Positions 5,031 through 62,555 of a DNA stretch of 64,000 nt are shown here, piece after piece. Source of the stretch: an uncultured Planctomycetia bacterium (GTDB taxonomy: Bacteria > Omnitrophota > Gorgyraeia > JABMRN01 > RBG-13-46-9); NCBI GenBank assembly GCA_964649665.1, contig CAZYPU010000001.1, positions 16,428 through 80,427 on the forward strand, given 5' to 3'. The notes below the pieces were generated by a model, which saw nothing but the letters and a program-made list of their open reading frames with translations, was not told the DNA's origin and ran no database searches. The translations under genes and the position numbers were made by a program. Numbering within the stretch: the stretch's first letter is position 1; each line of letters opens with the position of its first letter.

Positions 5031-5175
5031 CTCCGTCATTGCGAGGACCCCGAGCAAGCGGCCGAAGGCCGCGCGTCGAGGGGGACGAAGCAATCTCAAA
5101 CGAAGAGATTGCTTCGGTCTGCTTCGCAGACCTCGCAATGACGGAATAAAGGCTTCGCGGCCTCGCAATGACGAA
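5031..5175. mobile_element. MITE-like palindromic element, copy 1 (TIR CTCCGTCATTGCGAGG / CCTCGCAATGACGGAG; internal core palindrome CGAAGCAATCTC..GAGATTGCTTCG; tandemly duplicated right terminus)
   Basis: This is the reverse complement of the element at 7768-7933 and is also related to 62409-62510. Terminal inverted repeats were read directly. It sits immediately 3' of the giant ORF stop and is preceded by the conserved flank GATAATGTAAAATATTGTGGRCACTTT. Confidence 0.75.
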
Positions 5176-5223
5176 GAAGCGAAATGTCCAATTATCTTGA
5201 TATTACAGGGCTTTTTTTCCGGC

Positions 5224-5252
5224 TTGATATTCCGTATCTTTGCAGGTATACT
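5224..5252 (+). promoter_or_regulatory. Sigma70-type promoter TTGATA-17 bp-TATACT upstream of the MFS transporter; the ATG lies about 9 nt after the -10, giving a leaderless or near-leaderless transcript
   Basis: -35 TTGATA at 5224-5229, 17 nt spacer, -10 TATACT at 5247-5252, ATG at 5261. The whole block is duplicated at 7985-8013. Confidence 0.55.
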
Positions 5253-7767: not shown

Positions 7768-7933
7768 TTGCGAGGTCTGCGAAGCCTTTACTCCGTCATT
7801 GCGAGGTCTGCGAAGCCTTTACTCCGTCATTGCGAGGTCTGCGAAGCAGACCGAAGCAATCTCTTCGTTTGAGATTGCTTCGTCCCCCTCGACGCGCGGC
7901 CTTCGGCCGTTTACTCGGGGTCCTCGCAATGAC
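7768..7933. mobile_element. MITE-like palindromic element, copy 2 (orientation opposite to copy 1; left end carries 2.5 tandem copies of a 31 bp unit TTGCGAGGTCTGCGAAGCCTTTACTCCGTCA)
   Basis: Its reverse complement matches 5031-5175 almost base for base. Same TIRs and the same core palindrome. Confidence 0.75.
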
Positions 7934-7984
7934 GGAGAAGCAAAGTACCTAATTATCTTGACATTACTGGGCTTTTTTTGCGGC

Positions 7985-8100
7985 TTGATATTTCGTATCT
8001 TTGCAGGTATACTTTACACATATGGGCGTACGTACTTTCTGCCTTCTGATGATGGCCGCGTTTTTCGCGTCGCTGGGCCTGGCGGTAATATCACCTTTTT
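7985..8100 (+). pseudogene. Duplicated MFS promoter (TTGATA-17-TATACT at 7985-8013) plus a 5' fragment of the MFS gene (first ~27 codons, ATG 8022), degenerating after ~8100
   Basis: Nucleotides 7934-8100 align to 5173-5339 with only a few substitutions, including the promoter, the ATG and MGVRTFCLLMMAAF(S/F)ASLGLAVISPF. The frame then diverges and terminates (SHNIVPRGPTTFSNI*). Confidence 0.7.
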
Positions 8101-43600: not shown

Positions 43601-46600
43601 AGTTTATACAGTATTTTTATTAGCTATCAGAAAAAAGCGAGACTCAGCAGGATAAAGAAGCCGAAGCACGCGACATGGCCTTGCTTTATCCTGTATAGTT
43701 TGGGGTTCGTAACTGATGAAGTATGGAAAGGTTATTTATCCTACCGCAGGAAATTACTGCTAAAAAGAGAGACACGGGCTGCTGAAAGGCAATCTAAACC
43801 GGTGCCCTTTCCCGCTTCATTCAATGTAACGCAGGCGCAGTTATCGGGTGTCCGAAAAGCGCTCGAAAAAATACACGTCCTTGACGAAAAAGGCATGATA
43901 AAATCGCTCGGCGCATTTGATAGTATAACCAGGCAGTCAATTGTTGAAGGCGGAGGCGGCCCCGCGTACGGCATTTTTAAATCAGGCATACAAAGGACAG
44001 AGCAGGCGCTGCCCGGAGGAACGGACTTGTGTCACTATATGCTTTATCACCTGGGCTTTGTAAGCGAGGCTGTGTGGCTGGAATACACACAATATCTGAA
44101 GATAAAAGAAGCGCTGAAAAAAGTCAACATGCTCAACCGCCGGGGCAAAATCCGCGATATCACCGCTCTTCTACGCGTAAATGCAACGTTTTTAAGCAAT
44201 CAGGGCATCTTAGGCGTATACCTATCCTACGTAAGAGCGCATTATGAGTTTAAGCGGGATACGCCTAAAGGCATAAAATTACACTATTACGCGCTATATC
44301 GCCTCGGGTTAGTTACCGAAGAATTATTGCGCGAATACAAATGGTATATCCGGCTGGAGAAGGCGTTACGGACAAGGTTAAAACTTGACCAAAACGGGAA
44401 AATTCGCGACCACGCGACCCTTTTAAGCATAAATACGAATTTCCTTGAAAAAGAAGGCCTTTTGGAAGGATACAGGCTTTATATGGAAGCCCATCCCGAA
44501 CTTGCCAAAGAAACACCCGAAGGCACGGAACCCCATCATTACCTTCTACGCCATTTAGGGTTATTTGCCAAGGCGCTATTCACGCAGGAGAGCGAGGGAT
44601 ACGCACAGCTTAAAAACGCGCTTAAGGAGAGCGAAAAGCTTACCCCCGAAGGCGAAGTCCGCGACCTCAAGGCTCTTTTAAGCATAAACATAGAGTTTTT
44701 CGAAAAGAAAAAAGTTCTTGAAGCCTATCAATCCTGTCTGAAAACCGTCGCCGAAGAATTACCGGAAGGCGCAGAGGGCTGTCATTACGTCTTATACAGT
44801 TTAGGGCTTGTTTCGGGCAACCTCTGGACCGAATACACATGGTACTGCCGCCTGAAAAAGGCGCTCAAAGGCGCCGGGAAGCTCAGCCCCGAAGGCATTA
44901 TTAAAAACCTCACCAGCCTGCGCGGCATAGACTACGCATTTTTTAATGAGCATGGCATTGTGAGAATATCGCAATTCTATACACGCCGGTATCCCGGATT
45001 CTGGAGAGGGATTCCGCGCGGCGCGGATGGGTGGCGCTATCTTTTATACAATCTCGGGTTCGTTGACGATGAGTTGTGGCAAAACTATCTATGGTATGCG
45101 AAGATAAGCGTCACGCTTAAAGCGGCCGGAAAACTCGATAAGCAGGGAGCAATCAGGGACATAAACACCCTTTCAAACATCGGCGCAGCGTTTTTTAAAG
45201 AACACGACATCTCGGGCATATACCAGGCATATTTAGAAGAAAACCCTGATTTTATTCAAAGCGTGCCGGAAGGGGTGGAACCGCGGCATTATTTTTTGTT
45301 TATTTTAGATTTCATGCCGGACAAATTCTTGCGCGAATACAAATGCTGCAGCGAGATGAAAAGAGCGTTAGAAAAAGCCGGAAAACTGAATAAGGCAGGG
45401 GAGATTCCCGATTTGGCGACGCTGCTCGGCATGAATAAAAAATTCTTCTCTGAAATTGGCGCATTACCTGCATACGAGGCATACCTTGAGTTTTACCCCG
45501 AGCTTGAGCATCATGCGCCTGAGAAGGAGTCCGCGGAGTGCGATGCGCTTCACCGGATGGGGTTTGTTTCAAAAGAGCTCTATCAGAAATACATGCTGCA
45601 CCTCAAGGTAAAACAAATTTTGAAAAACTCCGGAAAACTCGACAAAACGGGTAAATTCCGAGATATAGACAGCTTCTTGAGCGTAAACTCTGGTTTCTTA
45701 AGGGAACATAAAATCTTAAACAGTGCCGACGCTTTTTTCAGGAAAAACCCGGAACTGATGAAGAAAATGCTCGCCACTGCGGACATATCCCACTGTTTCC
45801 TGTATTGTTTAGGTCTTGTTTCCGAAGAACTTTGGAATAAGTACGAAACGCGTTGCCCGTTCAAAGCGGTGCTGTGGAAAGAAAGGCTCCTTGATTCGCA
45901 CAGAAGAATTCGCGATTATGACGCACTGTTTAGTATAAACGCCGCGTTTTTGAAGAAGCACGGACTGCTAAGCTTATATCAATCTTACGTACAAGAGCAT
46001 CCGGGTTTTGCTGAAAAACTGCCGGAGGGAGCGAATCCGCGACACTATTTCCTGTACCGGATGTACCGGATGGGGCTTGTGTCTGACGAGGTATGGAACG
46101 GATACATAAAGTGCGTGACCACGCCGGAGTTTCTTAAGCTAAACGACGAGAAGCGAATGTGGTATGTTACACGCCGCTATTGTCTTGAGGCCGCGCGGAT
46201 AATAAGGCCGGGAGAGATTATACAGGAGGCCGCGATCCTCTTAAACATAAGGGAACCGGTTTTTCGCCGCAAAAAAACAAAAGAGACGTGGCGTGAAGCG
46301 ACGAGATATTACAGCAGGCAATGGGAAGAAGGGCTATTGGGAAAATTTGAGCTCGAAAACCTTGATATATATATACTAAAGGACCTGGGACTTGCGACAG
46401 CGTCATCATGGGATGAGTATCTTGCCTATTCTGCCCGGGAGAGAGCGGCGCGGATTGAGAAATCCGCTATGACTGCGAGGGGAAGCGTTCTTAACAGAAT
46501 CAAAGGCCTGGCTGTGGATATCCAAAAAGCTATCGAGGAAGGCGATATCGCTTCCGCGGCGGCCGCCCTTGATATGATCGATAAGCTGTGTGAAGGACAT

Positions 46601-49600
46601 GGCGGTAGAATATCGCTTCCGGAGCAAATTAAAATCCTTCTCGACGGATTCAGAGAACAAACCTCTCAAATGATCGACGCGGGAATGCGTGAATTCGCGG
46701 ACGCGCGCCGGGAAATAGAAAAAGGTATATATGCCGCGTATGCCGATTTAGTAAATTTAGTAGACAATATAGACGCTCTTGCCAATCCTCCGGTAGGAGA
46801 GGAGGGGGTAGAAGAAGAAGATCGGGCCACACACGAGCTTTTGATAATCCTTCAGTTTAAGCGGGAGTCTCTCGATAGTTTAAAAACGCTGGAAGATGAC
46901 CTGGAAGTTATCAGGAAAAAAATAACAGAACTGGTCGGCGAATCAGGCAATTTTGAAAATACGCTCGCGGCCCGTGCCGTTATCCAGCTCGAAGAGCTGG
47001 AGGAAGGAATCCCTAAGTTGCCGGCAAAAATTGAAAAATTGTTTAGCCGGTTATTAGGAGAAAACTCTGGAAAAGAAGAAGCGCAAGAACCTATCGAGGA
47101 TATTGAAGTTATTGTAGATATTGAGGTAGAGCCGGGGGCAGCGAAAGGGCCGGACTTAGAAATAGCAGCCGATATAACGATTGAGGAAATGCCGGACGAA
47201 GAGCCGAAAACCACGGAAACTGAAAACATAAAAGAACGAAGATTGGACCTGGAGTTTGCCCGGGACTTATTATCGATGTTTGATAGCGGTGTGCCTGTAA
47301 CCGAAGGTGAAATACAGGACGAGATAGACTATATCGAGTCTAATCTGGAGGCAATAAGAGGGGAGAGCAAAAAGCTGTGGGAGACGGCAAAAATGCTTTT
47401 AGAAAGGCTGAAAAAAGCAAGGTGGATAGTAAGGATAAAAGCCAGGAAGTGCCTCGCTGGAGCCAGGAAAACTACGGAACAACCTTCATCAGAGTTAATA
47501 GCGAGCCGCACTATTGGGGGATTCTTGAGGCAAAATCCTGACAAAACATTGCTCCAGATTATGCCGTTAGTCGTCAGAACCGGGAATTGGGTAGCTGTGG
47601 AAATCGCGATAGGAATGATCAGAGAAGACGAAACACTAAAGCTTAAAAAGGATGACGCGGCCTATTTAGCGGAAATCGAAGCACAACTGCTCAAAGCGCA
47701 AAAAGCACAAAAGGGCGCTAAAAAAACTGCCAAAAGCAAGCCCACCAGAAATCCCAAAGACGGTTTTATAAAACCGCTTTTAATACCCACTTTAACCGGT
47801 ATCGCCGCGCCTGCGGCGGGGGCGGTATTAGCGGCTCCCTACTTGTCGAAATCATTCGGTTTGCCGCTCGTGGCGGGCGTGGCGATAATAGCCATCATCC
47901 TTATTTTGTATTCACGATACAGCAAAGAGATAAAAGCCTTATGGAAAATGACCTGTATCAATTTAGGTGACTTATACGAAGATTTTTCTATTGAGATCAT
48001 GGAGCGCCTTAGAAAAGACCACGAAACATTTAAGTGGCTTTTTGATTATGTCGATGAACTTGTGAAACTTCCGATGTCATTTGAAAACGCCGAGAAATTA
48101 TTCGCGGTAAAATGCTATTTGTTAATTCGTAAAAAAGGTCGTGTTAATTGCGACCGATTTTTGAGAACGTTGACAAGCGCTTTGAGGGACGACATAGAGT
48201 ATTCCAGGCAATCCATAGTCTGGAACAATTCCATGATAGGGCGGAAGAAATTTTGGGTGCATCTTTTACGGCGGAGCGACGATAGTACAACCAAAAGGGA
48301 AATCAGGGACCTTGAATCCGAAATAGAACGCGAAAGAATCTTAAGCGAGATGGAGATAGAGGGGGCGCAAGACATGCTTAATGGTAAGGAAAATTCTGTC
48401 AGGCGGATATTCGACCTGGTATGCGCTAACCCGGATTTTTTTCCGGGAATAAAGAAGATACCCGATTCAAAGAATCCCGAAATAGGGGCGCTTGCGTACA
48501 TGCCGGCGGCGCCGGAAAGCTCGGTCGCTGACATGGGCATTTGTAAACACGTGCTTTTAAGCGTGTCTCCGAGGGAAGAGACAACGCTTGAAAAACAGAC
48601 CCAAGAGGCGCTTTCAAGGGCAAAGAAACTTTTGACGGACATGGGATACAATGAGAGCGCCGTAGTGAAACAAACCGTTTTTTTGAGGAGCGTTTCGGAT
48701 AAGGCAGAATGCAAAGAGATAATCGAAGCGCATTACGACAGGGGCCCGCCTCCGGCCACAAGCTACATAAAGGAACCGCCCGCCGACGGAAGCGATGTTA
48801 CGATTGAGATATTGGCCATAAAAGGCGAAAACACAAATGTCAGAAGAGTAAACGAATTTCTCACCGTTGTAGAACAGGAAAATCTCAAATGGGCCTACGT
48901 CGCCGGCATCGAGCCGGATGAAACGATACCGGATGAAACGATAGAAGATACCTATGAGCAGGCGCTTAATGCTTTCCGGAAAATGAAGGATGTCCTCGAG
49001 GAGAATGGATTCAATTTTGAAGACGTGATACGAACATGGATTTACGAGCGCGATCTTTTAAAGACAGAAAACGGAAGCCAGAGATATCAGCTTTTGAATG
49101 ACGCGAGAAGCGAGTTTTTTAATACAGGGGACAATGGTAAAAAGATACATTTTGGCAGGAATTTCAGGAATTTAATAAGAGACCCGCAATTGAAAGAAGA
49201 GATTCTGCCTCCCGCTTCCACAGGTATTGGCATGTCAGGCGGAACGTTTGTCATGGAATGCCTGGCGCTTTCCACGACGAGAAACGACGTAAGCATCACG
49301 CCTTTGGAAAATCCCGACCAGGTACCCGCGCACAAATACAGCAAAAAAGTGTTGAGAAAAGGAAGGAGCGAAGAGGAAAAAACATCACCCATGTTTTCGC
49401 GGGGGATGGTTGTTAATATCGGCGGTTATAAAATGACTTTGATTTCCGGCACCGCCTCAATAAAGGGCCCTAAAACCGTACACAAAAGAAGTGTTAAAAA
49501 ACAGACAAAAACCACCATAGAAAATATCTTAAGGGTTATAGAGCAGGCGGGTGCGAGCCTGGCGGATATACCACAACTCAGGGTTTACATCAAAAATTCG

Positions 49601-50536
49601 AAACATTATAAAGCGATACGGAAAATCGTGGAAGAAAGATTCCCGGGTAAAGCGTGCGTGTATTTAATAGCTGACGTCTGCCGGGATAATCTCCTCGTGG
49701 AAATCGAGGCAGTGGCGTATACATACCAAAAGCCTGAAGCCGTAACCGAAGAGACGGTTTTGCAAGAGACAGATCCGCCGAAGGAAGCCGCAAGAAGAGA
49801 AGGTAAGAAAGACCGGCCGGCTGATGAACCGCATGAACCGGGCGTACCGGTTGCAGAAACGAAGGGGAGCCCGGAAGACGTAATGCAATTCTTGAGGAAT
49901 CTTCGGATCCCCAAAGAGCTCGCGCAACGTTTTGTGGAAAGCATAACTTCGCGCGCCTTGGGCAAAAAAGAAATTATTCTGGCGTTCGAGGATGCGATAG
50001 GAAGCGGCAGTGATAAAAGCCCCCTCAGCATCTTCGAGGCGTTGAAAAAACTGAGAAAAAACCCCACATTCTGCCTTCTTCTTAAAAACGTTGACGTTGT
50101 TATTGGTTCATCGAATAGTCTTCATAATAAGCTCCAGCGGCATTTCGCAAAACCCGATACGGAGGTATTCCTGTTCGCGAGGGCAGATTCCAGGGAGAGA
50201 TTGAGAGGGGTAGAAGGCAAGCGAGGCGTGCATTCCTTCTACATAAAAGATAAGGGTTTTAACATAAAAGATAAGGATTTTACCAAAAACGCCTATTATC
50301 CCCTTCTGGAGATAGTGACAATTGCCCTAAAACAGCATATTGCTGATTTAGTTTCGGTCAGCGTTGGGCTCGATAAACTAGGCATAGAGCTTGAGCAATT
50401 GGGAATAGAATCGATACTGGAAGAAGAATCCACGGGTGTTTTGGTTTTCACACTTCTGCCTAACGCGAAAGCGCATGACAAACAAGCCCTTATCAAGCGA
50501 TACGCCGACTTAAAGCGCTTCATCCGCTCTGCGTAG
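37682..50536 (+). CDS. Giant multi-domain membrane-associated protein (4284 aa): GT2, GNAT, ~13 novel ~80-aa repeats and tandem RidA-like domains
   Basis: Single uninterrupted 12.9 kb ORF. N-terminal signal-anchor homologous to that of the next giant ORF (ILWANP versus ISWAYP). Domain calls are listed as separate features. Confidence 0.85.
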   Translation: MGQNKSIIFKAICFSLVITFCFENILWANPEAFKKNVSNGTLQVQSKINPIATPELLHQGLIEFSLRYIVQAVDDIANINFPLTPEAPHYAKDIKIVLDFSPPTENKKEGKHKEGDNWIVPCTIFDSRGRYFWTYEAVIHPDKSISWKKKISAESAIVPEPQPPAPPVEEPTLAPQASRPLPNPSAFRDLHRSEEGARWPFGKRQLATQDPRRDSDRVEHALGKTRQRYELTQVMDRIVQGVKEKFGSGFVLAIDGQKATRKTTLSEIMSKGISDISSGDIEVLSYTKGMYERERDYMRVVKRALREKKLVVCEGQSMVQILEEGNIFPDLILYHKANLMTQLYSSFLRSFLLSKAYRERMLDDEKKGLSLLLTLCDWAPFGLIFFIWEVYKIFTEKKSDKETLNELSKRPNCVTLNFSTYKLGGLTIEDVYGIMTSVADSASYPSVATVEHGLISEVPGAPLTAEDYVRQKEKEGAEFILLYSREGRLVRCMSIKEAKYAAGNMEIAGIALRIKEGETQFFEAGRTDFETGKIVESLDYTAEMKEPKKVYFVVPMHKEMKRLLPETKDNPYGEDALRKTVWQLQEGSRINRRFKWQLILVDDGTPGNASAKLAEKLWAEIQEEYASWGETLDPSQVIIEKITPREKKKMKSRKGGAVLRGFNIALKSASPGDYIGYTDLDISTDMRQTGFLLKALAEGDAEVAIGSRWAKGGKGEKVPPSGIVSSKVYNLLVQTLMPPLRGIQDTQRSFKLFTKRAAEEILRHAKDNGFAFDTELLLLAKLLSYRTSEVPIAWIDSPGATTLSMFTDGPKMVWSLFRQRRHMFGKMFRSSYIMTRSGATSGSGEGERPLGLIGKWMLTPEAKFKEDHPGCRAGDITFMARRIDYPERDEIEIKLRARCVPFTEFDNFRRTGVEEIDSALKEFLYAFTSLKVKGVTLYMEPNRYGIYGIGTKDIIAVRGPLRFSKIAKTHEIMHAALDAGALTLKTVIDNIKGGEKALNEYIGKNPRRQVPGMRAHYALRLLFRQRNPIRDKLLTRFLKIIQPVRDFLDIRLFGGLSLAGRAGILAVFAYVLESYVGTNRWLLLSVIAVSSIILVDVWYSLWEKWEKTGELINGLLGTRKGHETLTAEVNEIVFDRYPGRRWIPGNVKEALKLDDPSADTTYIIASFKKSNVPIGYLAFTAKSTDAAITCVNLWINEKHRHKGIALKLLERFLEEAERRQKKSAIFRLKKNEGINLDVVTGLLKAAAALRGARIAIVPTSYGRLIRIWLYKSRPRTQLLSAALPLSLLAIEAAKEEPIIIKPWMEAAFMAGFAFLCLCEIIRKYWDAIKENRAVGYAIERFANLIKWLDDFLPIVFLAAILSFVPCPKVSPSAHAAMVTQPPAAAGVVNTLPVAAQVGAADISSTLLDFISTPVSIGLMIGLIFAILCMMYRKVAAALFNNTCVYIKEMLGDKYIRFWARFQEDREALERLFAESRKTAQKYSSSPQDSVEFYAIECYLIARRKGKVKYIHFSQELAKAFRRDRRFIGRSIAWYRFRVRLKSLWARILLKGEGLAGDGLEDLQKSIRYCESLLRLDTLIYKNREQYARQIFDAIINNPERFPGIKEVPDPDDPGTHMLVYESPNSSGVRNPKDGFIKPLLIPTLTGIAAPAAGAVLAAPYFAEIPTYISDILNWFASIGAGGALSWKTIAILVTFVPLFISIVSAVKGESLSGKYRGIWRERLEKALRKHSKLNKDGVIPDLATLLSIRHKLFRSERASGSLLAILQAYQDLLSGGIIKKPKFAPLHIFVLRDLGFVTDELWAEYEVYITSKNNDEISEPRIKLWHSLVRAVLKKEDMLGKDGTIDDVKKLEGIKPDFFTSRKGRAGINEVYEAFQRAAKKKNIPYRYAHKRKFVLYVLRILGFLTDEMCGIVENIDFTFPSDKLKKKYHAALAPVLRKKDILNEKGKVRDIDALLRVNVKLFRARKEEGKGVSLYSIFISYQKKARLSRIKKPKHATWPCFILYSLGFVTDEVWKGYLSYRRKLLLKRETRAAERQSKPVPFPASFNVTQAQLSGVRKALEKIHVLDEKGMIKSLGAFDSITRQSIVEGGGGPAYGIFKSGIQRTEQALPGGTDLCHYMLYHLGFVSEAVWLEYTQYLKIKEALKKVNMLNRRGKIRDITALLRVNATFLSNQGILGVYLSYVRAHYEFKRDTPKGIKLHYYALYRLGLVTEELLREYKWYIRLEKALRTRLKLDQNGKIRDHATLLSINTNFLEKEGLLEGYRLYMEAHPELAKETPEGTEPHHYLLRHLGLFAKALFTQESEGYAQLKNALKESEKLTPEGEVRDLKALLSINIEFFEKKKVLEAYQSCLKTVAEELPEGAEGCHYVLYSLGLVSGNLWTEYTWYCRLKKALKGAGKLSPEGIIKNLTSLRGIDYAFFNEHGIVRISQFYTRRYPGFWRGIPRGADGWRYLLYNLGFVDDELWQNYLWYAKISVTLKAAGKLDKQGAIRDINTLSNIGAAFFKEHDISGIYQAYLEENPDFIQSVPEGVEPRHYFLFILDFMPDKFLREYKCCSEMKRALEKAGKLNKAGEIPDLATLLGMNKKFFSEIGALPAYEAYLEFYPELEHHAPEKESAECDALHRMGFVSKELYQKYMLHLKVKQILKNSGKLDKTGKFRDIDSFLSVNSGFLREHKILNSADAFFRKNPELMKKMLATADISHCFLYCLGLVSEELWNKYETRCPFKAVLWKERLLDSHRRIRDYDALFSINAAFLKKHGLLSLYQSYVQEHPGFAEKLPEGANPRHYFLYRMYRMGLVSDEVWNGYIKCVTTPEFLKLNDEKRMWYVTRRYCLEAARIIRPGEIIQEAAILLNIREPVFRRKKTKETWREATRYYSRQWEEGLLGKFELENLDIYILKDLGLATASSWDEYLAYSARERAARIEKSAMTARGSVLNRIKGLAVDIQKAIEEGDIASAAAALDMIDKLCEGHGGRISLPEQIKILLDGFREQTSQMIDAGMREFADARREIEKGIYAAYADLVNLVDNIDALANPPVGEEGVEEEDRATHELLIILQFKRESLDSLKTLEDDLEVIRKKITELVGESGNFENTLAARAVIQLEELEEGIPKLPAKIEKLFSRLLGENSGKEEAQEPIEDIEVIVDIEVEPGAAKGPDLEIAADITIEEMPDEEPKTTETENIKERRLDLEFARDLLSMFDSGVPVTEGEIQDEIDYIESNLEAIRGESKKLWETAKMLLERLKKARWIVRIKARKCLAGARKTTEQPSSELIASRTIGGFLRQNPDKTLLQIMPLVVRTGNWVAVEIAIGMIREDETLKLKKDDAAYLAEIEAQLLKAQKAQKGAKKTAKSKPTRNPKDGFIKPLLIPTLTGIAAPAAGAVLAAPYLSKSFGLPLVAGVAIIAIILILYSRYSKEIKALWKMTCINLGDLYEDFSIEIMERLRKDHETFKWLFDYVDELVKLPMSFENAEKLFAVKCYLLIRKKGRVNCDRFLRTLTSALRDDIEYSRQSIVWNNSMIGRKKFWVHLLRRSDDSTTKREIRDLESEIERERILSEMEIEGAQDMLNGKENSVRRIFDLVCANPDFFPGIKKIPDSKNPEIGALAYMPAAPESSVADMGICKHVLLSVSPREETTLEKQTQEALSRAKKLLTDMGYNESAVVKQTVFLRSVSDKAECKEIIEAHYDRGPPPATSYIKEPPADGSDVTIEILAIKGENTNVRRVNEFLTVVEQENLKWAYVAGIEPDETIPDETIEDTYEQALNAFRKMKDVLEENGFNFEDVIRTWIYERDLLKTENGSQRYQLLNDARSEFFNTGDNGKKIHFGRNFRNLIRDPQLKEEILPPASTGIGMSGGTFVMECLALSTTRNDVSITPLENPDQVPAHKYSKKVLRKGRSEEEKTSPMFSRGMVVNIGGYKMTLISGTASIKGPKTVHKRSVKKQTKTTIENILRVIEQAGASLADIPQLRVYIKNSKHYKAIRKIVEERFPGKACVYLIADVCRDNLLVEIEAVAYTYQKPEAVTEETVLQETDPPKEAARREGKKDRPADEPHEPGVPVAETKGSPEDVMQFLRNLRIPKELAQRFVESITSRALGKKEIILAFEDAIGSGSDKSPLSIFEALKKLRKNPTFCLLLKNVDVVIGSSNSLHNKLQRHFAKPDTEVFLFARADSRERLRGVEGKRGVHSFYIKDKGFNIKDKDFTKNAYYPLLEIVTIALKQHIADLVSVSVGLDKLGIELEQLGIESILEEESTGVLVFTLLPNAKAHDKQALIKRYADLKRFIRSA
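39329..40150 (+). other. Domain: family 2 glycosyltransferase (DPM1-like polyprenol-phosphate glycosyltransferase)
   Basis: YFVVPMHKE ... LVDDGTPGNAS ... YTDLDIS (DxD) ... QRSFKLFTK. Confidence 0.7.
41150..41345 (+). other. Domain: GNAT N-acetyltransferase
   Basis: IGYLAF...VNLWINEKHRHKGIALKLLERFLEEA (motif A, R-x-x-G-x-A-type). Confidence 0.55.
43040..46430 (+). repeat. Intragenic array of ~13 divergent tandem repeats of ~75-85 aa (K-A-L-x-K-x-G-x-I-R-D-x-x-x-L-L-x-I-N ... P-E-G-x-E-x-x-H-Y-x-L-Y-x-L-G-[FL]-V-[ST]-[DE]-E-x-W-x-x-Y)
   Basis: Recurrent LGFVTDELW, LGFVSEAVW, LGLVTEELL and LGLVSEELW units read in the translation. No known family recognised. Confidence 0.7.
48533..48826 (+). 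other. Domain: RidA/YjgF/L-PSP-like (first copy)
   Basis: AVVKQTVFLRSVSDKAECKEIIEAHYD..PPATSYIKEPPADGSDVTIEILAI. Confidence 0.55.
49394..49722 (+). other. Domain: RidA/YjgF/L-PSP-like (second copy)
   Basis: LISGTASIKGP..TIENILRVIEQAGASLADIPQLRVYIKN..HYKAIRKIVEERFPGKACVYLIADVCRDNLLVEIEAVAY. Confidence 0.65.
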
Positions 50537-50633: not shown

Positions 50634-53600
50634 ATGTTGCATATAAAACGTAGTATTTGGGTAAAATTTATAGCAATGGGCATGGCCTGCCTATTTTTTC
50701 TTGACACCATCTCGTGGGCGTATCCCGTTGACCGGTCCGAAATTACCACTCTCGCCGCGCAAAGCATGTTCAACTCCATTCTCGACGCCATTACAAAAAA
50801 GCCCTCCGAACGCTACTCATACCGAAAGCGTCTGGAAAAAGAAATGGTCTGCATTATCGAAATGGCGCTTAGGGCGCTGGATAGGAAGAACCCTGACATT
50901 GACTGGGGAAGCCACCTCAACATTAACGCGGCGCTTAACACGATGCAGCATGACGGGCGTTACCGCAAGCTGATGGAAGTCCTGGATATACCGAGGCGCC
51001 TGGAGGACGAAAAAGGGGAGTACATCGAAATACTCGTAAAAACCACAAGGCCAAGCGGAAGACAAAAAGAATTTACGATTAAATTCCGCGGCGAAAAACT
51101 CGATGACCTCTCTGATCGGGGCAAGATTGAGATTATATCCGCGGAAGGGAATACTGCGCCGGCGCCAAATACGGATATCGAGGCGCCGAAAGGACCGTAC
51201 GGAACCGGGGTAAAAAGGGTTAAGGTACCATTCAAGGAAAAGAATCTGGAGGCGCGAAAAAAGAAAGCGCTTTCCTTTATTAAAATAAAATCCGCCGAAT
51301 ACTGCCACAGTGAACTTTGGGATAATATCTGGAACAGCCTTGTTTATAATGGGGGCGTAGCTGAAATAGGAGCGGTTTTAAAAAGGAAGATAAATCGGGT
51401 TCTGCGCTCGCCCCCGGTGGTTAGGAAAAAAGAAGTTGCCATGGAGGCGGTGAAGAGCCTTGCGACTTCTCTTGCCCTAAAAGAGAACTCCGGCAGCGTT
51501 GACCGCGCGTTAATGCGTGATTTTAGAATAGCGGTTCTTTTATTGCTGGATATCTTTGTGCCGGGCATACATGAGGAATTTAAAAAGCAAGATATTTTGG
51601 ACGGCGAACATTTCTTTCCCGGGATATTCGACCGCCTCTCGATTCGCGGTATCCCTGCCGCCCCGGCCGCAGACATGGCCGAGCCGCAATCGCCAAAACC
51701 TGAAGGCCCAGCGCAGGGGCCGAAAGCCGAATTCATGATTCCGGGCGCGGCGCCGGACATGGGCGCGGCGGCGCTCGGAGCGCTCTGGCCGTTCGGGTTA
51801 GTCGGCGCTCTGCCGAGAACACCGCGGCGCCGGTTCGGGGAGCCCCTTATAGATTCGTTATTTAATCGCGGCAAGCGCTTCATGCAGCCGGCTATCCCGC
51901 CCGAGATGGGCGGCGCCGTAGCCGAGCCGGCATCGCCGAAGCCCGCACATGGGACAGGTACAAGCTCGGATTTGAAAGCGTCCCTACCGTCCTATACCGA
52001 AGAGACCCTGTATGCGCTGGAACAAGCAGGAGGCAATCAGGCAAAAGCAGCCGGCATACTTAACATAGGCCTATCAGCTGTCTCAGAGAGAAAAAGCCGC
52101 ATAAGACGAGTCGCCGTCAAAATAAACGATAATGCCACGCTCAAACGGCTGCTACCCCTACCGTCCTATACCGAAGAGACCCTGGAGGCGCTGAAAAAAG
52201 TAGGGGGTAATCAAGTAAAAGCAGCTCGTGTGCTTAGTATAATCCAACAAACTGTTTCACAGAGAATAATCGCCATAAGACGGGCCGCCGCCAGAATAGG
52301 CGATAAGGCCACGCTTGAACGACTTGCTAAAGCGCTATTATCATTACCTGCTTATACCGAAGCAACCCTGGAGGCGCTGGAACAATCGCAAGGCAAGCAG
52401 AAAGAAGCAGCCGGTATACTTAAGATAAGCCAAGCAACTGTTTCACGAAGAATAAGCGCCATAAGATCAATCGCCACCAGAATAGACGATAAGACTACAC
52501 TTGAACGGTTTAATGAAGTGTTAAAAGTCTCAAAAGGCGCCGCCCCAGGCGACAGCGTATCGTCAAGAGGTCGTCAAGGCGCCGCAATCGGCGCGGGACT
52601 TACCACTTTAAGCTGGCAGGCGGGATTATGCTTCTTCGCGTTCCTATTCGTTTATGAGATCGCCCGGCAGGTCTGGTATGCGAGATTCTACAAGAATTTA
52701 CTCGATAGCCACCCCAAGGCTACGCGAATAATCAATTCCTTCTTCTCAAGCTCCTTCCATTTCCCGCGGGTCATAGAAGATTTTATAAAGAACCATATCA
52801 CGCAGCCGTTACTGAATATATTCTCAAGAATAAGATTTCAAAGCCCGATCGTGCAGGTCCGATTAGCCGGCATTGGCCGCACGATTACCGTTTTCAGAAT
52901 GCCGGTGGAACTAATGATGTCTGAGAAATCGCCGCAGAAGCCGCCGGGCCATGCGCTAGGAGAGCTGCCGGCGTCCACCGCAGTCCCGTCCGAGCCGCTA
53001 GGCGCGCCGGAGGGAGCACACTCCCAACCTGACAAACTCGAACAGGTTAGGATCTTGTTGCGCACGCTCATCCAAAAAATAAATTTATTCTTTTTTGGAA
53101 TATTTTCGCAAAAGAAACAATCGCGCGAAGTTGGCCTTGAAGATTTGGTTTTTGAAAGGGCCGTTATAATCGGCGAAGGATCGTTCTCCCGTGTATTCAG
53201 AGTCCCGCATAAAGACAATGGCGTCGATTACGCGTTAAAACTTTATTGCAAGGCGCCTCCGGGTTATTCTCTGAAGAGCGCCGTTGAATTGATCGATTAT
53301 CAAATGCGCATCGCCCGCGAGTATCCGCAACTGATTAAATCCGGAATCATGCCCAAGTATTTTACAAAAGGCAGTTGTTATTTTGACGGCGATAGGCTCA
53401 GCCTTGCACCAATAAGCGAAAAAGCATACCCATGCCTGCTGATGGAGTATATCAAGGGAGATGATCTATCTTCTCTATCAGATCTGGATTATCACGTAGG
53501 GACAAAACTTGTTAGGGATGCATTGGCGGAGGGGCAAGACCAATATATTATCGCTGCCCTATATAATATTCTGCGTGATAAGCTGGACGAGGCATATTCT

Positions 53601-56600
53601 ATAGCGCAGGCAGTTAATGCCTGTCATAGCGCAGAGCCTCATGGCACTTTTCCCGGGGGATTACTGATTAAGGAGCTCAAGCCGACTAACATTAAAGTAC
53701 GGCCAGACAAAACCGTTTGCCTGGTGGATCTCGAAAGTGCGGTCCCGCTAAATTATGACTGGGTGCGTAATCCTTCCGGAGTGCCGCCGGTAGCGAGACT
53801 GGTGATGACCAGCGCTTTCAGCGAGGATAAAAACGCTTTTAAAGACAAATCCAAAGCGGGCTTAATCCTCTTAGGGCAAAAATTGGATGTGCCGTGGGAT
53901 ATTTATAGTTTTGGCGTGGTATTATCGAGGATGCTGCATGAATATAACATAACGCTGGATGACGCCGCAGAGATTAAGGAAGCAGCAGTACAAACCGATA
54001 CGATGAGAAGGTTCTTGGAAAGAGCAGAATTTGCCAAGGGACAATTTAAGCGGTCGATCGCCGGCATGAAGGAGATTATAAAGAAATGCACGATAAAAGA
54101 TCGAACGAAGCGCTACCGGGATATGGGCGAGGTCATCGAGGCGCTTAAAGATTGCATTGGCGTGGTTGATAAAGAATTCAGGGGCAAAATTCCCGCTGAG
54201 CTGCCGTCGCAGGAACCGCGCGGCACCACGTCCCAAGAGAGCATTGAGCCTAAAGCAGCCGCGGCCGAGCCGCCGGCGCCGCGAGTCGCGCCAAAGGCGA
54301 CAGAGCCATTGCCGGAAACTGCAGGAACAAATTCAGGCCCAGATTCGAAATCGCCTCTGTCCCCGTCTATGCTTCCGGGCGGGGAAGAACAGCCGTATAA
54401 GCCCGGCCAATACGTATACGAACACCCGTATAAGTGGTTTTTAATTTCCGCAGCAGGGTTGTCAGCCAATTTGCTTGCGGCGGCCTTATGCCTGGTCCCG
54501 GCTATATTGATTTCATCTTCCATCAACCTTTCCACGCCACCGCTTATAGCGCTCGGCGGCGCGCTATTATATTGCGCAGGCGCTCTGAACGCGATAATAT
54601 TTGCCGTTAACATTCTCGAAGCCGGCATGGCGTTTATCCGGGGAGACGTTGTGGTAAAAGACATCCCGTCGGAAACGGATAAAATTAAAAAATACCTTTA
54701 TACCGCCAGCATACCGCACGAACTGGGCCACTATCTTATGGCGAGGTTATTCGGATTAAATGTGAAATTTTCCACAATCGGGGTTGATTGTAAAGATATC
54801 GACGTGTTTGAAGTAACCGATTATACGAATATGCGCTACGCGATTAATATGATGAAAGAACGCGGCCTTTTCCCATTCTCAAGCTCGCAACCCGGCAAAT
54901 TTAATCGGGTTAAAATCGGGGGGAGTAATGAATTCGTTTTTAATGTTACCGAAAAAGACAGATATTTGTTAGAGCAAATGGTTCGGGCCTGGGCTTCGGA
55001 GAAAAGCCTTGACGCCGGCATTGAAGTGACAATGGATAACCGTCTCATCAACGTTTATAAAGGCCATGACCAGTACGCAATTCTGAGTTATTCGGTGGGG
55101 ATGGGAGAAAATTCAGAAATTGAAATCACTATCTATAATCAACGCGTAGAGTATCCATATAAAAGTCAGGGATTGATGGCGCTTTTACAAACCTATATCT
55201 TTTATCTGTCTAAATCGGACAAAGTCACTTATTGGAACATAGAAGGTACGGACGGAAAGGTATTCGCGAAAACAATGGAGGATAAAGGTATCTTAACGGA
55301 TGTAAAATACAAGAAAACTTCCCGCCTCGAAGATCATACCGAAGTGCGCTATGCGGAAGCGAGCATTAATAAAAACGTAGTGGCACAAAGAGCCAAGGAC
55401 TATCCGTTCGCGGCCGAGCCGCCGTCGCCGCAGGGTCCGAAAGCCGAATTCATGGTCCCGGGCGCGGCGCTGGATACAGGCGCGGCGGCGCTCGGAGCGC
55501 TCTGGCCGCTCGGGTTAGTCGGCGCTCTGCCGAGAACACTGCGGCGCCGGTTCGGGGAGCCCTTTATGGATTCGATATTTAACCGCGGCAGGTGCTTTAT
55601 GCAGCCGGCTATCCCGCCCGAGATGGGTGGCAGCGCGACCGAGTGCGAGGCGCCGAAGCCTGTGAATATTAGCGCTGAAAAAAAGGAGGCGTTTTTTAAT
55701 GAATTAGGTATAGGAGAGGAAGCCCTCGCAGCCGCTATCTTGAAATCCCCTACACTCGCAGGGCTTAACCCAGCCCGTGTAAGGAGGGCCTGGAGAGATA
55801 AATTAGGCATAGAAAAAGAAGCCCTCGCGGCCGCTATCTTGAAATGGCCTAAAATTGCAGGCTATAATGTTCCAAATAATATCAAGCCGAAACTGCAGAT
55901 TCTCAAGATGTTTAATGTCGGAAAAAATAAAATAATGGACTTCCTTATCAGGATAGTTGATTTTAACAGCAAGGCATTGGAATTTATTTTAGAGGCCTCA
56001 AAAGCGTCTTCTTTTGAGATAAAAGACATCAAGACATTAATAAGGATCTATAGAAAACTGAATAAAGCTGTCAAAGCTAAGACAAAAGTTACACTTGCCG
56101 GATGGTTCCGGGAACGAATAACCGATGATATTAATTTGACGGTGAAGCCAATTCTGTCGGATATTATAACCGAATTGCAGTCAGAAGAGACTGTGGATGA
56201 GGATTTGTGGGCAATGATAAAAGAAGCGAAGGCAATATTTGAGAGACAAGAAGAGAATGCCGTTGCCAGAGGCGAAAGAGAAGAACCTCGTAAATTTTCT
56301 CCTATTGCCTTATTTAGAATAGATTCGGCCCTTTACTATAGAGCCAGAAGAATAGGAATGTTGCGCAGGCTGCATTATATTAAACCCAGGTTAGGGTTGC
56401 GCAAGGAAGATACCGGCAGGCTTATTCAGGAGATAATGAAAGCAGAAGAAGAGTTTGACCGGCGTGAAGAGCGGGATGTCCGACGAGGATTTAGGGACAG
56501 CGCCCGCCCATGGATTCGTAGAAGGCTTTGGGAAATCAACCCATACCTGTATGATTTTTTACATAATCATAGGCCGGATTTACTCAAAACCTGCGTGCCT

Positions 56601-59600
56601 GCCGGCCTCCCGGGAAAGGGAAACCGCCACCAAAAGCTTCCAGATAACATATCTCTGGTAGGAAGAGAGGTTGATACTGAAGGGTTGGATTTAGATAATG
56701 TTTACTCTGACGTCAAGTTTTCCAAACCCGCTAAAGCGTCCGGTATAGGTATTTTTGCAAGAAACGAAGAATTGCTGGCAAAGATTGAAGAGATGATATC
56801 CGCCGGTGTCTGGGATCGGCGTGAAGCGTTCATTGTGAAGGAACGGTTGGGACTTAATCCGGAGGGAGCCAGGCGTTCCCTGCAGGAAATTGCGCATGCC
56901 CTGCGCATTACCAGAAACAGGGTATGGCAGATTGAGACAGACGCTATCCGGAAAGCGCAATTTTGGCTGAGGAAATCCCAACACCCTGTATTGAACGCAG
57001 AAAACGATGGACCGGCGTCTGGCACTGCGTCTGAACAGACAACAGCTACCGCCTCGGCCAAGTTGGCACCGCAAAAAGAACATGGTGGCACGTCGTCAGG
57101 AAATTCTTACGGCGCCGCAATCGGCGCGGGGCTTACCGGATTAAGCTGGCAGGCGGGATTATGCTTCTTCGCGTTCCTATTCGTTTACGAGATAGCCCGG
57201 CAGGTCTGGTACGCGAGATTCTACAAGAATTTACTCGAGAGCCACTCCGGGCCTGCCCGAATAATCAATTCCTTCTTCTCAAGCTCCTTCCATTTCCCGC
57301 GGGTCATAGAAGATTTCATAAAGGACCATATCACGCAGACGCTACTTAGCGTCGTTTCAAGAATAAGATTCCAAAGCCCGATCGCCAAAGCTCGGCTGGT
57401 TGATGGTTCAGTGGCACAGTTTCTTCAGATGCCGGTTGTATTTATGAGCACGGATTCAGGCGGCGAGGCTATAAAACGACCCGCCACCCTGCCTGTGAGG
57501 GTAAAAGAATTTTCTCAGTTGGATTCGATGCCGCTACACGGCTCGATAATGGAGTTGCCGATTTCCAGTAGAATTAAAAAAAGGTTGGCACGTGGAGGCG
57601 TCAAAACTATCGATGAACTTAAAAACATGACGCTCGACAAAATTCGTCAAATTTACGGGATTGGCGAAAAATCCATGACTATTATAAAAGCTATAAAGGA
57701 TAGGCTTGATGAATTGGCTGATATAGAGATGATGAAAAAAGAGCAATTAGCTAAGGAAGAGAAAAAGGCAGAAAATAAAAGGCGGCGGGAAAGACTAAAA
57801 TATATACGTGACGAGTTAGGCGTTAGCAGACTAAAATTCATTTCACTATTAAATGCCGCTGGGGCCGCATCCACGATAGAGATGTTGGGATATCTAAGAG
57901 GGTTAACCATTATCCCGGATCGGGTTATCGATAGTGCGGAGAATTTATTGCGACACGAGCGCGAAATAGCAAGAACAAGAGCGGTTCAGCTAGAAGCAAA
58001 AAGACAATTGGTTTCCTGCATTACGGCGTTTGAACAATTAAAAGAAAAACTTAAGACAGCAGATTTTGATGAGAGGAGGAGCGAACTTACGATTGCGCAA
58101 ATCTGGGTTGAGCCGGATTACCATACAAAGGAAATAGGCATTCACGGTTTTATGGATACAATCGCTGATAAAATAATCGCTCTAGATATTAAACCTCAAA
58201 ACCACAAGGCATTAAGGGCGCTTTTTGAATTAAGTGTAAGATATTTCAGCGGCAATATCAATGTTTTTAGAACCGTTTTGGCAAATATAAATAATGTAGA
58301 AGAACTGATAGAATTCCCTGCTTATATTGGATCCAACGGATTTAATCGCGAAAGCATAGATGAAGAAATGCGGCGTTTCCGAGAATGGCTACGTTCTAGA
58401 AGGGCAATACTTCCTTTCGAAACGGGCACATTTTCGTGTCCTTCTTGGTGGCCGTATGTGCCGAATGAGCTGGCTCCCGTCACAAGTGTCGGCAGGAGAA
58501 AATATTCCAAGGACGAAAGAGTTTCCGTAGGATATGGAGGATTTTTTGAAGGGTATTTAGATTTTATTATTGTCGGCGATACAATGCGAATTGGCGAGAT
58601 TCACGGTAAAATAGAAATGCACAGATTAATCCCAGAGGTTCGAAAGAAAGTAAGCGGCTGGGAAAAGTTGGCGCTAGAAGAAGCCATTAAAGAGGCCGGG
58701 CGGCGAGGGGTCAAGACGATTTTGTTCTCCCCTCCATTCGCGCAATACAGAGCGCTTAGCCAATGGAATACGTCTAACCCCGATTCGGATATAGCTTACA
58801 GGATTTATAGTAACCTGCCTTTTGATTCAGGGTTTAGATTAAAGATTAGAGAAAAAATCGTTTTTAGCGAAAATTTCCGCAATCAATTATTCTCTCATCT
58901 TGTATGGCAAAGAGACGCCGCCCCGGCCGCAGTCGCGGCCGAGCCGCCGGCGCCTCTGGCATCGGCCGGAGCCGCGGGCGAAACCCAAACACCCGCCGCG
59001 CGGAGGATAGTCGATACTATAAATGGTTATGAAGAAATCTTCCCGGGAGGCAACGCAGTCGGCCGTTATATAGATCCTGAAGGTAATCCGAGGAATTGCA
59101 CACTAAGCAGGGCGTGTTATGACAATGACTTCTGCAGAATACTGGCGGCGGATATCGGCAATGGCAACGCCGGAAAGAAAGCCCTCTCCATAGGCGCGGG
59201 CTCGGGTGTGCTTGAGAGTCGGCTAAACGAGGCCCATGGCCTTGAAGTTACATGTATAGATATAATCTCGAAATTCATGCCGTGGGATATGCGGGGGTCC
59301 ATGGCGTTTACTCTTGCCGACGGTGAGCATCTTCCGTTTGCGGACAATAGCTTCGATATTGTCATCTTATCGGAAAGCATAGGGCATATGAAACTTGATA
59401 TCGCCCTGGCTGAAGCGTTCAGGGTCTTGAAGCCGGGAGGAGTGATTCATATACTGACGCCTGATCCTGCGAACAAACTGTCCTGCGATCCCAGTTTGTT
59501 CGCGGCGCTAAAATATTCTCCCTATGATATCGCTCAAATTATACATGGATTGAAGAATTCAGGTTTTGAAAATGGTGAAAGAATAAAAGATGACAACCGC

Positions 59601-62408: not shown

Positions 62409-62510
62409 AACATGTCATTGCGAGGTCTGCGAAGCAGACCGAAGCAATCTCTTCGTTTGAGATTGCTTCGGCCGCAAACGAAGAACAGGGCGGCCTCGCA
62501 ATGACGGAGA
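62409..62510. mobile_element. MITE-like palindromic element, copy 3 (same orientation as copy 2; shortened right arm), with conserved left and right flanks
   Basis: CATGTCATTGCGAGGTCTGCGAAGCAGACCGAAGCAATCTCTTCGTTTGAGATTGCTTCG ... CCTCGCAATGACGGAG. Left flank GATAATGTAAAATATTGTGGGCACTTT and right flank GAGAAGCAAAG..CAATTATCTTGACACTAC match those of copy 1. A double hairpin (GTCCGACCGCGTAAGTCGGACCTACGCGG, 62351-62376) precedes it. Confidence 0.7.
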
Positions 62511-62555
62511 AGCAAAGCGCCCAATTATCTTGACACTACTTACGCGGTCGAATTC

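Follow-up and report, generated by a model that had tools for sequence, protein, structure and literature searches.

A divergent Hanks-type kinase domain with Glu or Asp at the catalytic position in giant proteins of Candidatus Omnitrophota

The aspartate of HRD, in the catalytic loop, is one of the three residues by which kinases are told from pseudokinases in all kinomes. Canonical bacterial Hanks-type Ser/Thr kinases (PF00069), PknB and PknG among them, have a bilobal fold with a Gly-rich loop, the β3 Lys, an L-K-P-x-N stretch, the DFG Asp, an APE-type Glu, the αF Asp and the subdomain XI Arg. In the DYD family and in the O-mannose kinase POMK, loss of the αC Glu is accompanied by an acidic residue two positions after the DFG Asp (DFG+2), which pairs with the ATP-binding Lys or Arg in AlphaFold3 models and in the POMK structure (PMC12599244). 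The DYD kinases, which occur in Actinobacteria and Firmicutes, still possess the HRD Asp and have Arg for the β3 Lys in ~60% of members (O'Boyle et al.); POMK, which phosphorylates mannose, has no β3 Lys. A conservative Asp-to-Glu change of a triad residue in an otherwise intact domain is found in titin kinase (EFG) and in the engineered mutant Csk D314E. In all seven described bacterial pseudokinase families the β3 Lys is lost (34–100% of members), as is the DFG Asp in most of them (10.1101/2025.01.12.632604). Here we describe a kinase-like domain with Glu at the position of the catalytic Asp. It is encoded in a giant open reading frame (ORF), ORF B, within a 64,000-nucleotide (nt) stretch of contig CAZYPU010000001.1 (assembly GCA_964649665.1, positions 16,428–80,427, forward strand; hereafter the window) from an uncultured bacterium labelled Planctomycetia and placed in Omnitrophota by GTDB. 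The region encodes a genuine, very divergent Hanks-type kinase fold, and the domain belongs to a rare family nearly confined to Candidatus Omnitrophota. From its residues we propose, with a probability of roughly 0.55, that it is a Ser/Thr kinase, rewired and probably active, which would accept either acid at the catalytic position.

For comparison with these systems, 23 family sequences were aligned, 21 of which span the catalytic loop (~27–37% identity to the window). The domain shares with the canonical kinases the fold and each of the elements listed above. Unlike them, it reads I-K-E in place of HRD and D-L-E in place of DFG, has no conserved αC Glu, carries an invariant VPxxYDW motif in the activation segment, and has a long αD–αE insert; also, the window family is embedded in giant multi-enzyme proteins and not in a receptor-kinase architecture. 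Its DFG+2 acid is DYD-like, with D-x-[D/E] in 18 of 20 members and literally D-Y-D in one (P0007), and it is membrane-associated as the DYD kinases are. Compared by description only, the window family differs from the DYD kinases in that its β3 Lys is invariant (19/19), its HRD position varies (Glu in 14/21), and its named sources are Omnitrophota and one Planctomycetia-labelled metagenome-assembled genome (MAG). It keeps the Lys that POMK is without. Titin kinase likewise resides in a giant multidomain host; there, however, the change affects the metal-binding Asp of DFG and, along with a YMAK change, has become fixed in vertebrates, whereas in the window family it affects the catalytic-loop Asp, alternates with Asp within one family and leaves the DFG Asp invariant.

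The presence of a Hanks-type kinase fold in the giant ORF, which the original prediction had claimed from the letters alone, was borne out by three lines of evidence. First, the excised domain matches Pfam Pkinase (PF00069) significantly, with 41.0 bits (E 1.9e-10, profile positions 2–252 of 263), the gathering score being 31.7; scored within the whole 3,897-amino-acid (aa) protein, the same domain reaches 30.5 bits, slightly below that score. Second, a profile of the family matches kinases in the PDB down to E 6e-11, with PknB and PknG among its top matches. Third, an AlphaFold2 model of aa 830–1182, built on a 13-sequence family alignment, has a mean predicted local distance difference test score (pLDDT) of 85.8 and a predicted template modelling score (pTM) of 0.87, with the catalytic-loop and DFG blocks at 92–95. 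A Foldseek search of the PDB with this model returned ~1,940 kinase chains at E ≤ 0.001, the best being BMPR2 (E 2e-10, TM-score 0.60/0.69). The top matches are protein kinases only, namely BMPR2, TGF-β receptors, AAK1, PknB, PknG, BRI1 and MLKL (E ~1e-10 to 1e-8, probability 1.00), and the closest of them structurally are protein kinases of the tyrosine-kinase-like (TKL) type. The αF to αI region, a marker of protein-substrate kinases, is present, as is a TKL-like C-terminal motif, C-x-x-x-D-R-x-x-R-Y; the model also has a long helical insert between the hinge and αE. In a scan of the domain against NCBIfam every match was far under its cut-off and no specific family emerged.

The assignment of Glu1014 to the catalytic position depends on the register of the catalytic loop. 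Thus, phmmer aligned the window's LLIKELKPTNIKVRPDKTVCLVDL onto the stretch of RIPK3 with HRDLKPSN, and the family profile 'GLLiKeLKPeNI...ivDld' was aligned onto PKR 'KLINRDLKPSNI...IGDFG', the PKR loop being NRDLKPSN. Since these alignments set the register, I-K-E corresponds to HRD and D-L-E to DFG; K-E falls on the R-D of both kinases, in agreement with the predicted reading of the loop as I-K-E-L-K-P-T-N. No alternative HRD loop was found in the domain, where the only remaining RD dipeptides are in VRDAL (aa 960–964) and LRDKL (aa 980–984). Both lie within the long insert helices of the model, not in the loop after β6, which rules out a catalytic loop at aa 960–984. The domain therefore has Glu1014 for the catalytic Asp of HRD, and retains the β3 Lys, the DFG metal-binding Asp (Asp1032) and the catalytic-loop Asn (Asn1019). 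Its predicted αC helix holds Asp888 (Lys+19) and Glu885, and neither column is conserved in the family. All motifs quoted in the original prediction are in frame in the ORF B translation, although the start it gave, 53135, misses the frame by one base, as the codon begins at 53136. Its statement that all hallmark subdomains are present was right about the motifs and overstated their state: Ser stands for the third Gly of the Gly-rich loop, Ile and Lys stand for the His and Arg of HRD, D-L-E replaces DFG, and the αC acid column is unconserved.

Comparison with homologues, which had been suggested as a check on the conservation of Glu, showed that Glu is not fixed. Of the 21 sequences, 14 have Glu at the catalytic position and 7 have Asp, and none has a non-acidic residue there. 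Three changes of the active site characterize the family. The HRD motif becomes [I/V/L]-K-[D/E], with Ile, Val or Leu in the position of the His and Lys (19) or Arg (2) before the acid; DFG becomes D-x-[D/E], where the DFG+2 residue is Asp in 14, Glu in 4 and Lys in 2; and the αC Glu is unconserved. Otherwise a near-complete phosphotransfer set is kept. This comprises the β3 Lys, the catalytic-loop Lys (18/21) and Asn/His (Asn 14, His 6, Gln 1 at the Asn position), the DFG Asp (21/21), the P+1 Thr (19/21), the APE-equivalent Glu (19/21), the αF Asp (21/21) and the subdomain XI Arg (19/20). Asp and Glu codons are one third-position transversion apart, and in a neighbour-joining tree Asp and Glu members are interspersed. 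The alignment suggests that Asp is plausibly ancestral, because a divergent copy, L010a, keeps I-R-D-I-K-P-S-N. A search for residues co-varying with the Asp/Glu state gave nothing convincing; His at the Asn position was seen only with Glu (6/14 vs 0/7, Fisher p = 0.06, the sequences not being independent).

We consider that this pattern, as read from the alignment, is unlike what a dead domain would show in decay. As the catalytic position holds an acid in every case, though freely Glu or Asp, a carboxylate is probably required for function there. The alternation thus tilts the choice left by the original prediction, between a pseudokinase scaffold and an unusual kinase with a Glu base, towards a functional carboxylate. 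Mechanistically, the domain would be an ATP-dependent phosphotransferase, competent and possibly slow, in which Glu or Asp alike would orient the substrate hydroxyl and Lys would take the place of the HRD Arg. The DFG+2 acid may stand in for the missing αC Glu and hold the β3 Lys through a predicted salt bridge, a compensation made plausible by the precedents of the DYD family and the DLD of POMK. The retained αF–αI region and TKL-like C-terminal motif point to protein rather than small-molecule substrates. As to which proteins, we speculate that the kinase, which adjoins a membrane helix and has no dedicated partner domain, probably phosphorylates Ser/Thr sites of its own giant polypeptide or of neighbouring modules. 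In ORF B the most economical candidate targets would be the tethered helix-turn-helix (HTH) and other transcription-type modules, and the Ser/Thr/Pro-rich linkers. We also count in favour of an active kinase the calcineurin-like phosphoesterases (Metallophos) that two relatives carry upstream of their kinase-like domain; the phosphoesterase adjoins the kinase-like domain in L003/P0001 and lies ~1,100 aa upstream in L004. The L003 polypeptide additionally carries an APH-type phosphotransferase domain, a second kinase fold; these observations concern aa 168–396 and 1475–1698 of L003 and aa 1974–2201 of L004.

Several points weigh against an active kinase. By the triad rule (β3 Lys, HRD Asp, DFG Asp), a kinase domain that has lost its HRD Asp counts as a pseudokinase (PMC12599244). 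Csk with Asp-to-Glu at this very position has greatly reduced activity, according to the citation of Cole et al. 1995 in PMC3223231, and the conservative DFG Asp-to-Glu change was found experimentally to inactivate titin kinase (PMC4042850). In the family itself, the HRD His and Arg are lost, the expected αC Glu column (Lys+19) is acidic in just 8 of 21 sequences, and the Gly-rich loop, intact in most members, is degraded in P0003, P0005 and P0006. The neighbour-joining tree is star-like, so that the number of independent Asp/Glu switches is uncertain. Finally, neither an FHA nor a PP2C partner turned up in the window or in ~45 kb-equivalents of the relatives' giant ORFs.

On these grounds the domain could be a nucleotide-binding pseudokinase, which would keep the fold and perhaps ATP or metal binding, transfer no phosphate, and serve as a scaffold, switch or allosteric module. 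By the definition that at least one triad residue is substituted, the window domain (HRD Asp to Glu) falls among the pseudokinases, as do the two thirds of members in which the HRD Asp is missing. The weak activity of Csk with Glu, the inactivity of EFG titin kinase, the unconserved αC column, the three degenerate Gly-rich loops, the lost HRD His and Arg and the lack of FHA or PP2C phospho-signalling partners would all be expected of such a module. Nevertheless, the β3 Lys and the DFG Asp are invariant, unlike in the described bacterial pseudokinase families, and the residues of phosphotransfer, such as the catalytic-loop Lys and the P+1 Thr, are kept. ATP-binding pseudokinases typically have Asn, Ser or Ala at the HRD Asp position, whereas here no drift to a non-acidic residue is seen in 21 sequences at ~30% identity. 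We regard a pseudokinase as the main alternative, though less likely than an active kinase.

Less probable still is that the kinase fold serves a non-protein substrate or another chemistry, either as a POMK-like sugar or glycan kinase or in SelO/SidJ-like AMPylation or glutamylation, acting on metabolites or polymers of the neighbouring modules. Such chemistries are known for kinase folds, D-x-[D/E] resembles the DLD of POMK, protein-phospho partner domains are lacking, and the relatives' giant hosts are rich in GH77, α-amylase, GT1/GT4, glycogen debranching enzyme and sugar transferase domains. However, the flanking domains vary across the family, and those in the window are regulatory, not carbohydrate enzymes. 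The loop L-K-P-x-N is of the Ser/Thr protein-kinase type; the P+1 Thr, the APE-like Glu, the αF W-D-x-x-x-F-G and the subdomain XI Arg, all marks of protein substrates, are kept; and the top structural matches are TKL-type protein kinases.

An artefact or misreading, whether a sequencing error, a catalytic loop elsewhere or a chance resemblance, has a negligible probability: the whole-protein Pfam score is below threshold and Pfam misses the relatives P0053, P0003 and L003 at E 1e-5, but the excised domain exceeds the threshold, the AlphaFold2 and Foldseek results are unambiguous, the other RD dipeptides sit in insert helices, 13 other members have Glu, and the ORF B gene shows 0 mismatches over 11,694 nt to two other independent assemblies (JGI 3300025824 and ENA ERZ27245787), so that the Glu1014 codon, identical base for base in three assemblies, is real.

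Having weighed these alternatives, we retain the rewired, probably active Ser/Thr kinase as our reading. A more far-reaching form of it, which we put forward tentatively and as less likely than not, would be a natural lineage of active kinases in which the catalytic Asp is freely interchangeable with Glu by virtue of a rewired site (Lys before the acid, D-x-[D/E], no αC Glu, fixed VPxxYDW), and which acts as an on-board regulator phosphorylating its own giant Omnitrophota polypeptide.

The family is both rare and poorly covered by current models. An exhaustive HMMER search over 1.84 billion cluster representatives yielded 12 true relatives (E 3e-59 to 1.5e-9), ordinary kinases starting at ~1e-4; all the named ones come from Candidatus Omnitrophota MAGs. 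A pattern scan of GTDB species genomes with a 3-sequence alignment gave ten related loci, nine in Omnitrophota MAGs and one in the MAG labelled Planctomycetia, while an eleventh (L013) is weak (E 3e-4) and resembles an ordinary kinase. One more related locus, L014, came from the second of two metagenome scans, the first having given none. MAG and metagenome loci supplied 10 copies beyond those of the 12 clusters. Word-index searches of a 5.8-billion-protein set found no relatives, whether the query was the domain by itself or the alignment of the family, the candidate lists probably being swamped by ordinary kinases, and neither did a GTDB genome scan with a single protein as query. The Pfam model scores the family at only 23–50 bits and leaves the domain undetected at E 1e-5 in the three relatives named above. 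The bacterial kinase atlas, built from RefSeq and UniProt, does not mention Omnitrophota (10.1101/2025.01.12.632604), and the family is probably missing from it because detection by Pfam and NCBIfam is poor. In the literature we found no description of a natural kinase or kinase family that has Glu in place of the HRD Asp, nor of this Omnitrophota family.

In every member the kinase-like domain is one module of a large or giant, membrane-anchored multi-enzyme protein. At six of the GTDB loci the ORF is open at both ends of a 21-kb stretch and thus exceeds 6,990 aa, which makes the hosts giant genes of the kind described for Omnitrophota. The Omnitrophota MAG ELA036 has four copies of the domain at three sites (L004, L006 and L010), up to ~94 kb apart on contig JBAWWL010000001.1 (398 kb); every ORF there runs off its 21-kb locus, and one giant gene or several are both possible. 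The L010 giant ORF holds two copies, at aa 492–844 and 3333–3673, of which the upstream one, L010a, is the most canonical of the family and is without VPxxYDW. Another member, L012 (2-559), has an in-frame stop at DFG+2 (I-D-N-*-S), which might mark a pseudogene, stem from a sequencing error or be a recoded codon.

The features of the domain and of its surroundings in ORF B are collected in Table 1.

Table 1. Features of ORF B and its kinase-like module (nt positions in the window)
Feature	Position (nt)	Position (aa)	Strand	Remarks
ORF B, host of the kinase-like module	50634–62327		+	3,897 aa; 11,694-nt gene
Three HTH_8-like repeats	51981–52523	450–630	+	Pfam HTH_8 E 1e-10, 3 stretches; DNA repeat family D1
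Moderately hydrophobic helix LIQKINLFFFGIFS, then QKKQSRE	53067–53108	812–825	+	Kyte-Doolittle 1.43
Kinase-like domain	53121–54179	830–1182	+	Pfam envelope aa 841–1161, nt 53154–54116
Gly-rich loop G-E-G-S-F-S-R-V (G-x-G-x-x-S)	53172–53195	847–854	+	First Gly in 13/19, second Gly in 16/19 family members
β3 (VAIK) Lys869, in A-L-K	53238–53240	869	+	Lys in 19/19 family members
Hinge/β5 region LLMEYIKGDDL	53436–53468	935–945	+	
Insertion SAEPHGTFPG, αE to β6	53628–53657		+	~8 residues in the window only; gap in all other members
Catalytic loop I-K-E-L-K-P-T-N (= H-R-D-L-K-P-x-N)	53667–53690	1012–1019	+	RIPK3/PKR alignments
Glu1014 at the catalytic Asp position	53673–53675	1014	+	Codon GAG
VDLES	53724–53738	1031–1035	+	
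D-L-E replacing D-F-G	53727–53735		+	Asp1032 = metal-binding Asp; Glu1034 = DFG+2 acid
Activation-segment motif V-P-L-N-Y-D-W (VPxxYDW)	53742–53762		+	Family-specific; full-length members: P 15/16, Y 14/15, W 15/15
P+1/APE-equivalent T-S-A-F-S-E-D-K	53808–53831		+	Thr1059, Glu1064
αF (subdomain IX) W-D-I-Y-S-F-G	53895–53915	1088–1094	+	Asp1089
Subdomain XI D-R-T-K-R-Y	54099–54116		+	Arg1160
First 18-nt linker repeat GCGGCCGAGCCGCCGGCG (A-A-E-P-P-A)	54261–54278		+	Downstream bound of the kinase module
Strong transmembrane (TM) cluster	54435–54638	1268–1335	+	Hydropathy 1.9–2.2; then HELGH at 54717–54731

The kinase-like domain had been placed between TM segments and HTH modules, and this arrangement was recovered, with the HTH repeats and hydrophobic helices (aa 650–677 and 812–825) upstream and the TM cluster downstream. 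The helix LIQKINLFFFGIFS is possibly of juxtamembrane or TM type and would then hold the kinase at the cytoplasmic face. Such a location is suggested by L003/P0001, where a strong TM segment (2.45) in the equivalent position, followed by basic residues, stands directly before the domain, in keeping with the positive-inside rule. The HELGH region gives a weak Peptidase_M50 match (E 0.0027), and P0004 has a similar TM + HEGLH module at aa ~350–375, just upstream of its kinase-like domain; TM + HExxH modules of this kind could be on-board membrane metalloproteases for the processing or release of tethered HTH modules. P0004 is collinear with ORF B across the HTH-TM-kinase block. With most relatives, ORF B shares only the kinase-like domain, and the flanking modules are diverse: HAD, P-loop kinase, methyltransferases, GH77, amylase, GDSL lipase, dehydroquinate (DHQ) synthase, glycosyltransferases, HATPase and others. 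Since they differ so widely, the domain is a mobile module. A conserved partner domain was sought and rejected, none being common to the relatives.

ORF B and the preceding ORF A (37682–50536, 4,284 aa) are two giant plus-strand ORFs in tandem. Besides an N-terminal signal anchor, nearly identical in the two, ORF B contains the HTH modules, the kinase-like domain, the TM cluster with HExxH, mTERF-like, sigma70-r4 and RNA polymerase α C-terminal domain (α-CTD)-like modules, two S-adenosylmethionine-dependent methyltransferases and one GNAT domain. The setting resembles that of the Omnitrophota giant proteins (West-Roberts et al. 2023; 2026 complete-genome preprint), which come from the same phylum and likewise string together unrelated enzyme and regulatory domains in membrane-anchored form; indeed, the methyltransferase (PF08241) and GNAT (PF00583) of ORF B match the 'signal-transduction / regulatory' module described for them. 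Unlike the 'Archaeovorin'/dockerin-type giants (at least 30,000 aa), ORF B has 3,897 aa and no SecA-DEAD, dockerin, C39 or S8 by Pfam. Neither West-Roberts et al. 2023 nor the 2026 preprint mentions Pkinase/PF00069 or this domain family. The neighbouring genes in the window are bacterial housekeeping genes (ribonucleotide reductase, YchF, Mur ligase, GH65, transporters, Maf and others), and on this ground a phage or eukaryotic origin was rejected. The YchF shares 60–72% identity with proteins named Candidatus Omnitrophota. No tRNA genes were found in the window.

The 18-nt linker GCGGCCGAGCCGCCGGCG occurs six times in ORF B (54261–54278, 55410–55427, 58935–58952, 60315–60332, 61236–61253 and 61503–61520; four of the copies are exact, the other two have 1 and 3 mismatches), against 0.08 expected, and all copies are at module boundaries. 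Their flanks diverge while a 15-nt core is invariant, so that conservation at the nucleotide level goes beyond what the peptide needs; the element could be a joint of recombination or gene conversion, or a processing signal. Neither ORF A nor the giant ORFs of the relatives contain such an exact repeat. The window's three large multidomain ORFs (C-termini at 4975–4992, 50519–50536 and 62310–62327) end in a small residue and Ala (LANA, IRSA and LRAA), and the complete domain-bearing relatives P0003, P0005, P0053 and P0009 end in SAA, SAA, SAA and KAA, as compared with 1 of 26 ordinary window ORFs ending in Ala. These ends resemble the internal linkers in their left half (AA|EPP, SAAG, SSSG), which hints at standardised module ends or protease sites.

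ORF B also contains two internal duplications, 51712–51943 vs 55429–55660 and 52560–52851 vs 57093–57384, with 88–89% nt and 77–86% aa identity, each including a hydrophobic helix followed by basic residues; the duplicated hydrophobic segment at aa 643–768 recurs at aa 2154–2278. In both copies the pair brackets nucleic-acid-binding modules, the three HTH_8 repeats in the first, and the mTERF-like and sigma70-r4 modules, followed by the α-CTD-like one, in the second. In ORF A, a long tandem array of ~84-aa repeats (25–45% identity) occupies aa 1703–2924 (42788–46453), a TM-containing block is duplicated (aa 1431–1663 and 3348–3614), three RidA/L-PSP domains are found near the C-terminus, and aa 526–824 share 45% identity with part of the L008 giant ORF. 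Outside the ORFs, a ~150-nt intergenic repeat is present in three copies (~5075–5250, 7841–8016 and 62413–62550), one of them separating ORF B from the Mur ligase gene. The repeat contains a perfect hairpin (GAAGCAATCTC...GAGATTGCTTC), the conserved block CCTCGCAATGACGGAGAAGCAAAG and a stretch that includes TTGACA, and may be an element like repetitive extragenic palindromes (REP) or miniature inverted-repeat transposable elements (MITE), or a shared promoter-terminator unit.

A family in which the other catalytic residues are kept and Asp and Glu have been swapped repeatedly would amount to a natural experiment on the triad rule, and kinase specialists would find it mildly surprising. Should the Glu forms be active, a caveat would be due for automated pseudokinase calls that count every non-Asp residue as dead, and the compensating K-[D/E] and D-x-[D/E] would tell something about the mechanism and engineering of kinases. 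Should they be inactive, an acid kept so strictly would suggest a structural or ligand-binding role. Current surveys omit the family because Pfam often misses it. For the Omnitrophota themselves, it would provide a first regulatory handle on their giant multi-enzyme proteins.

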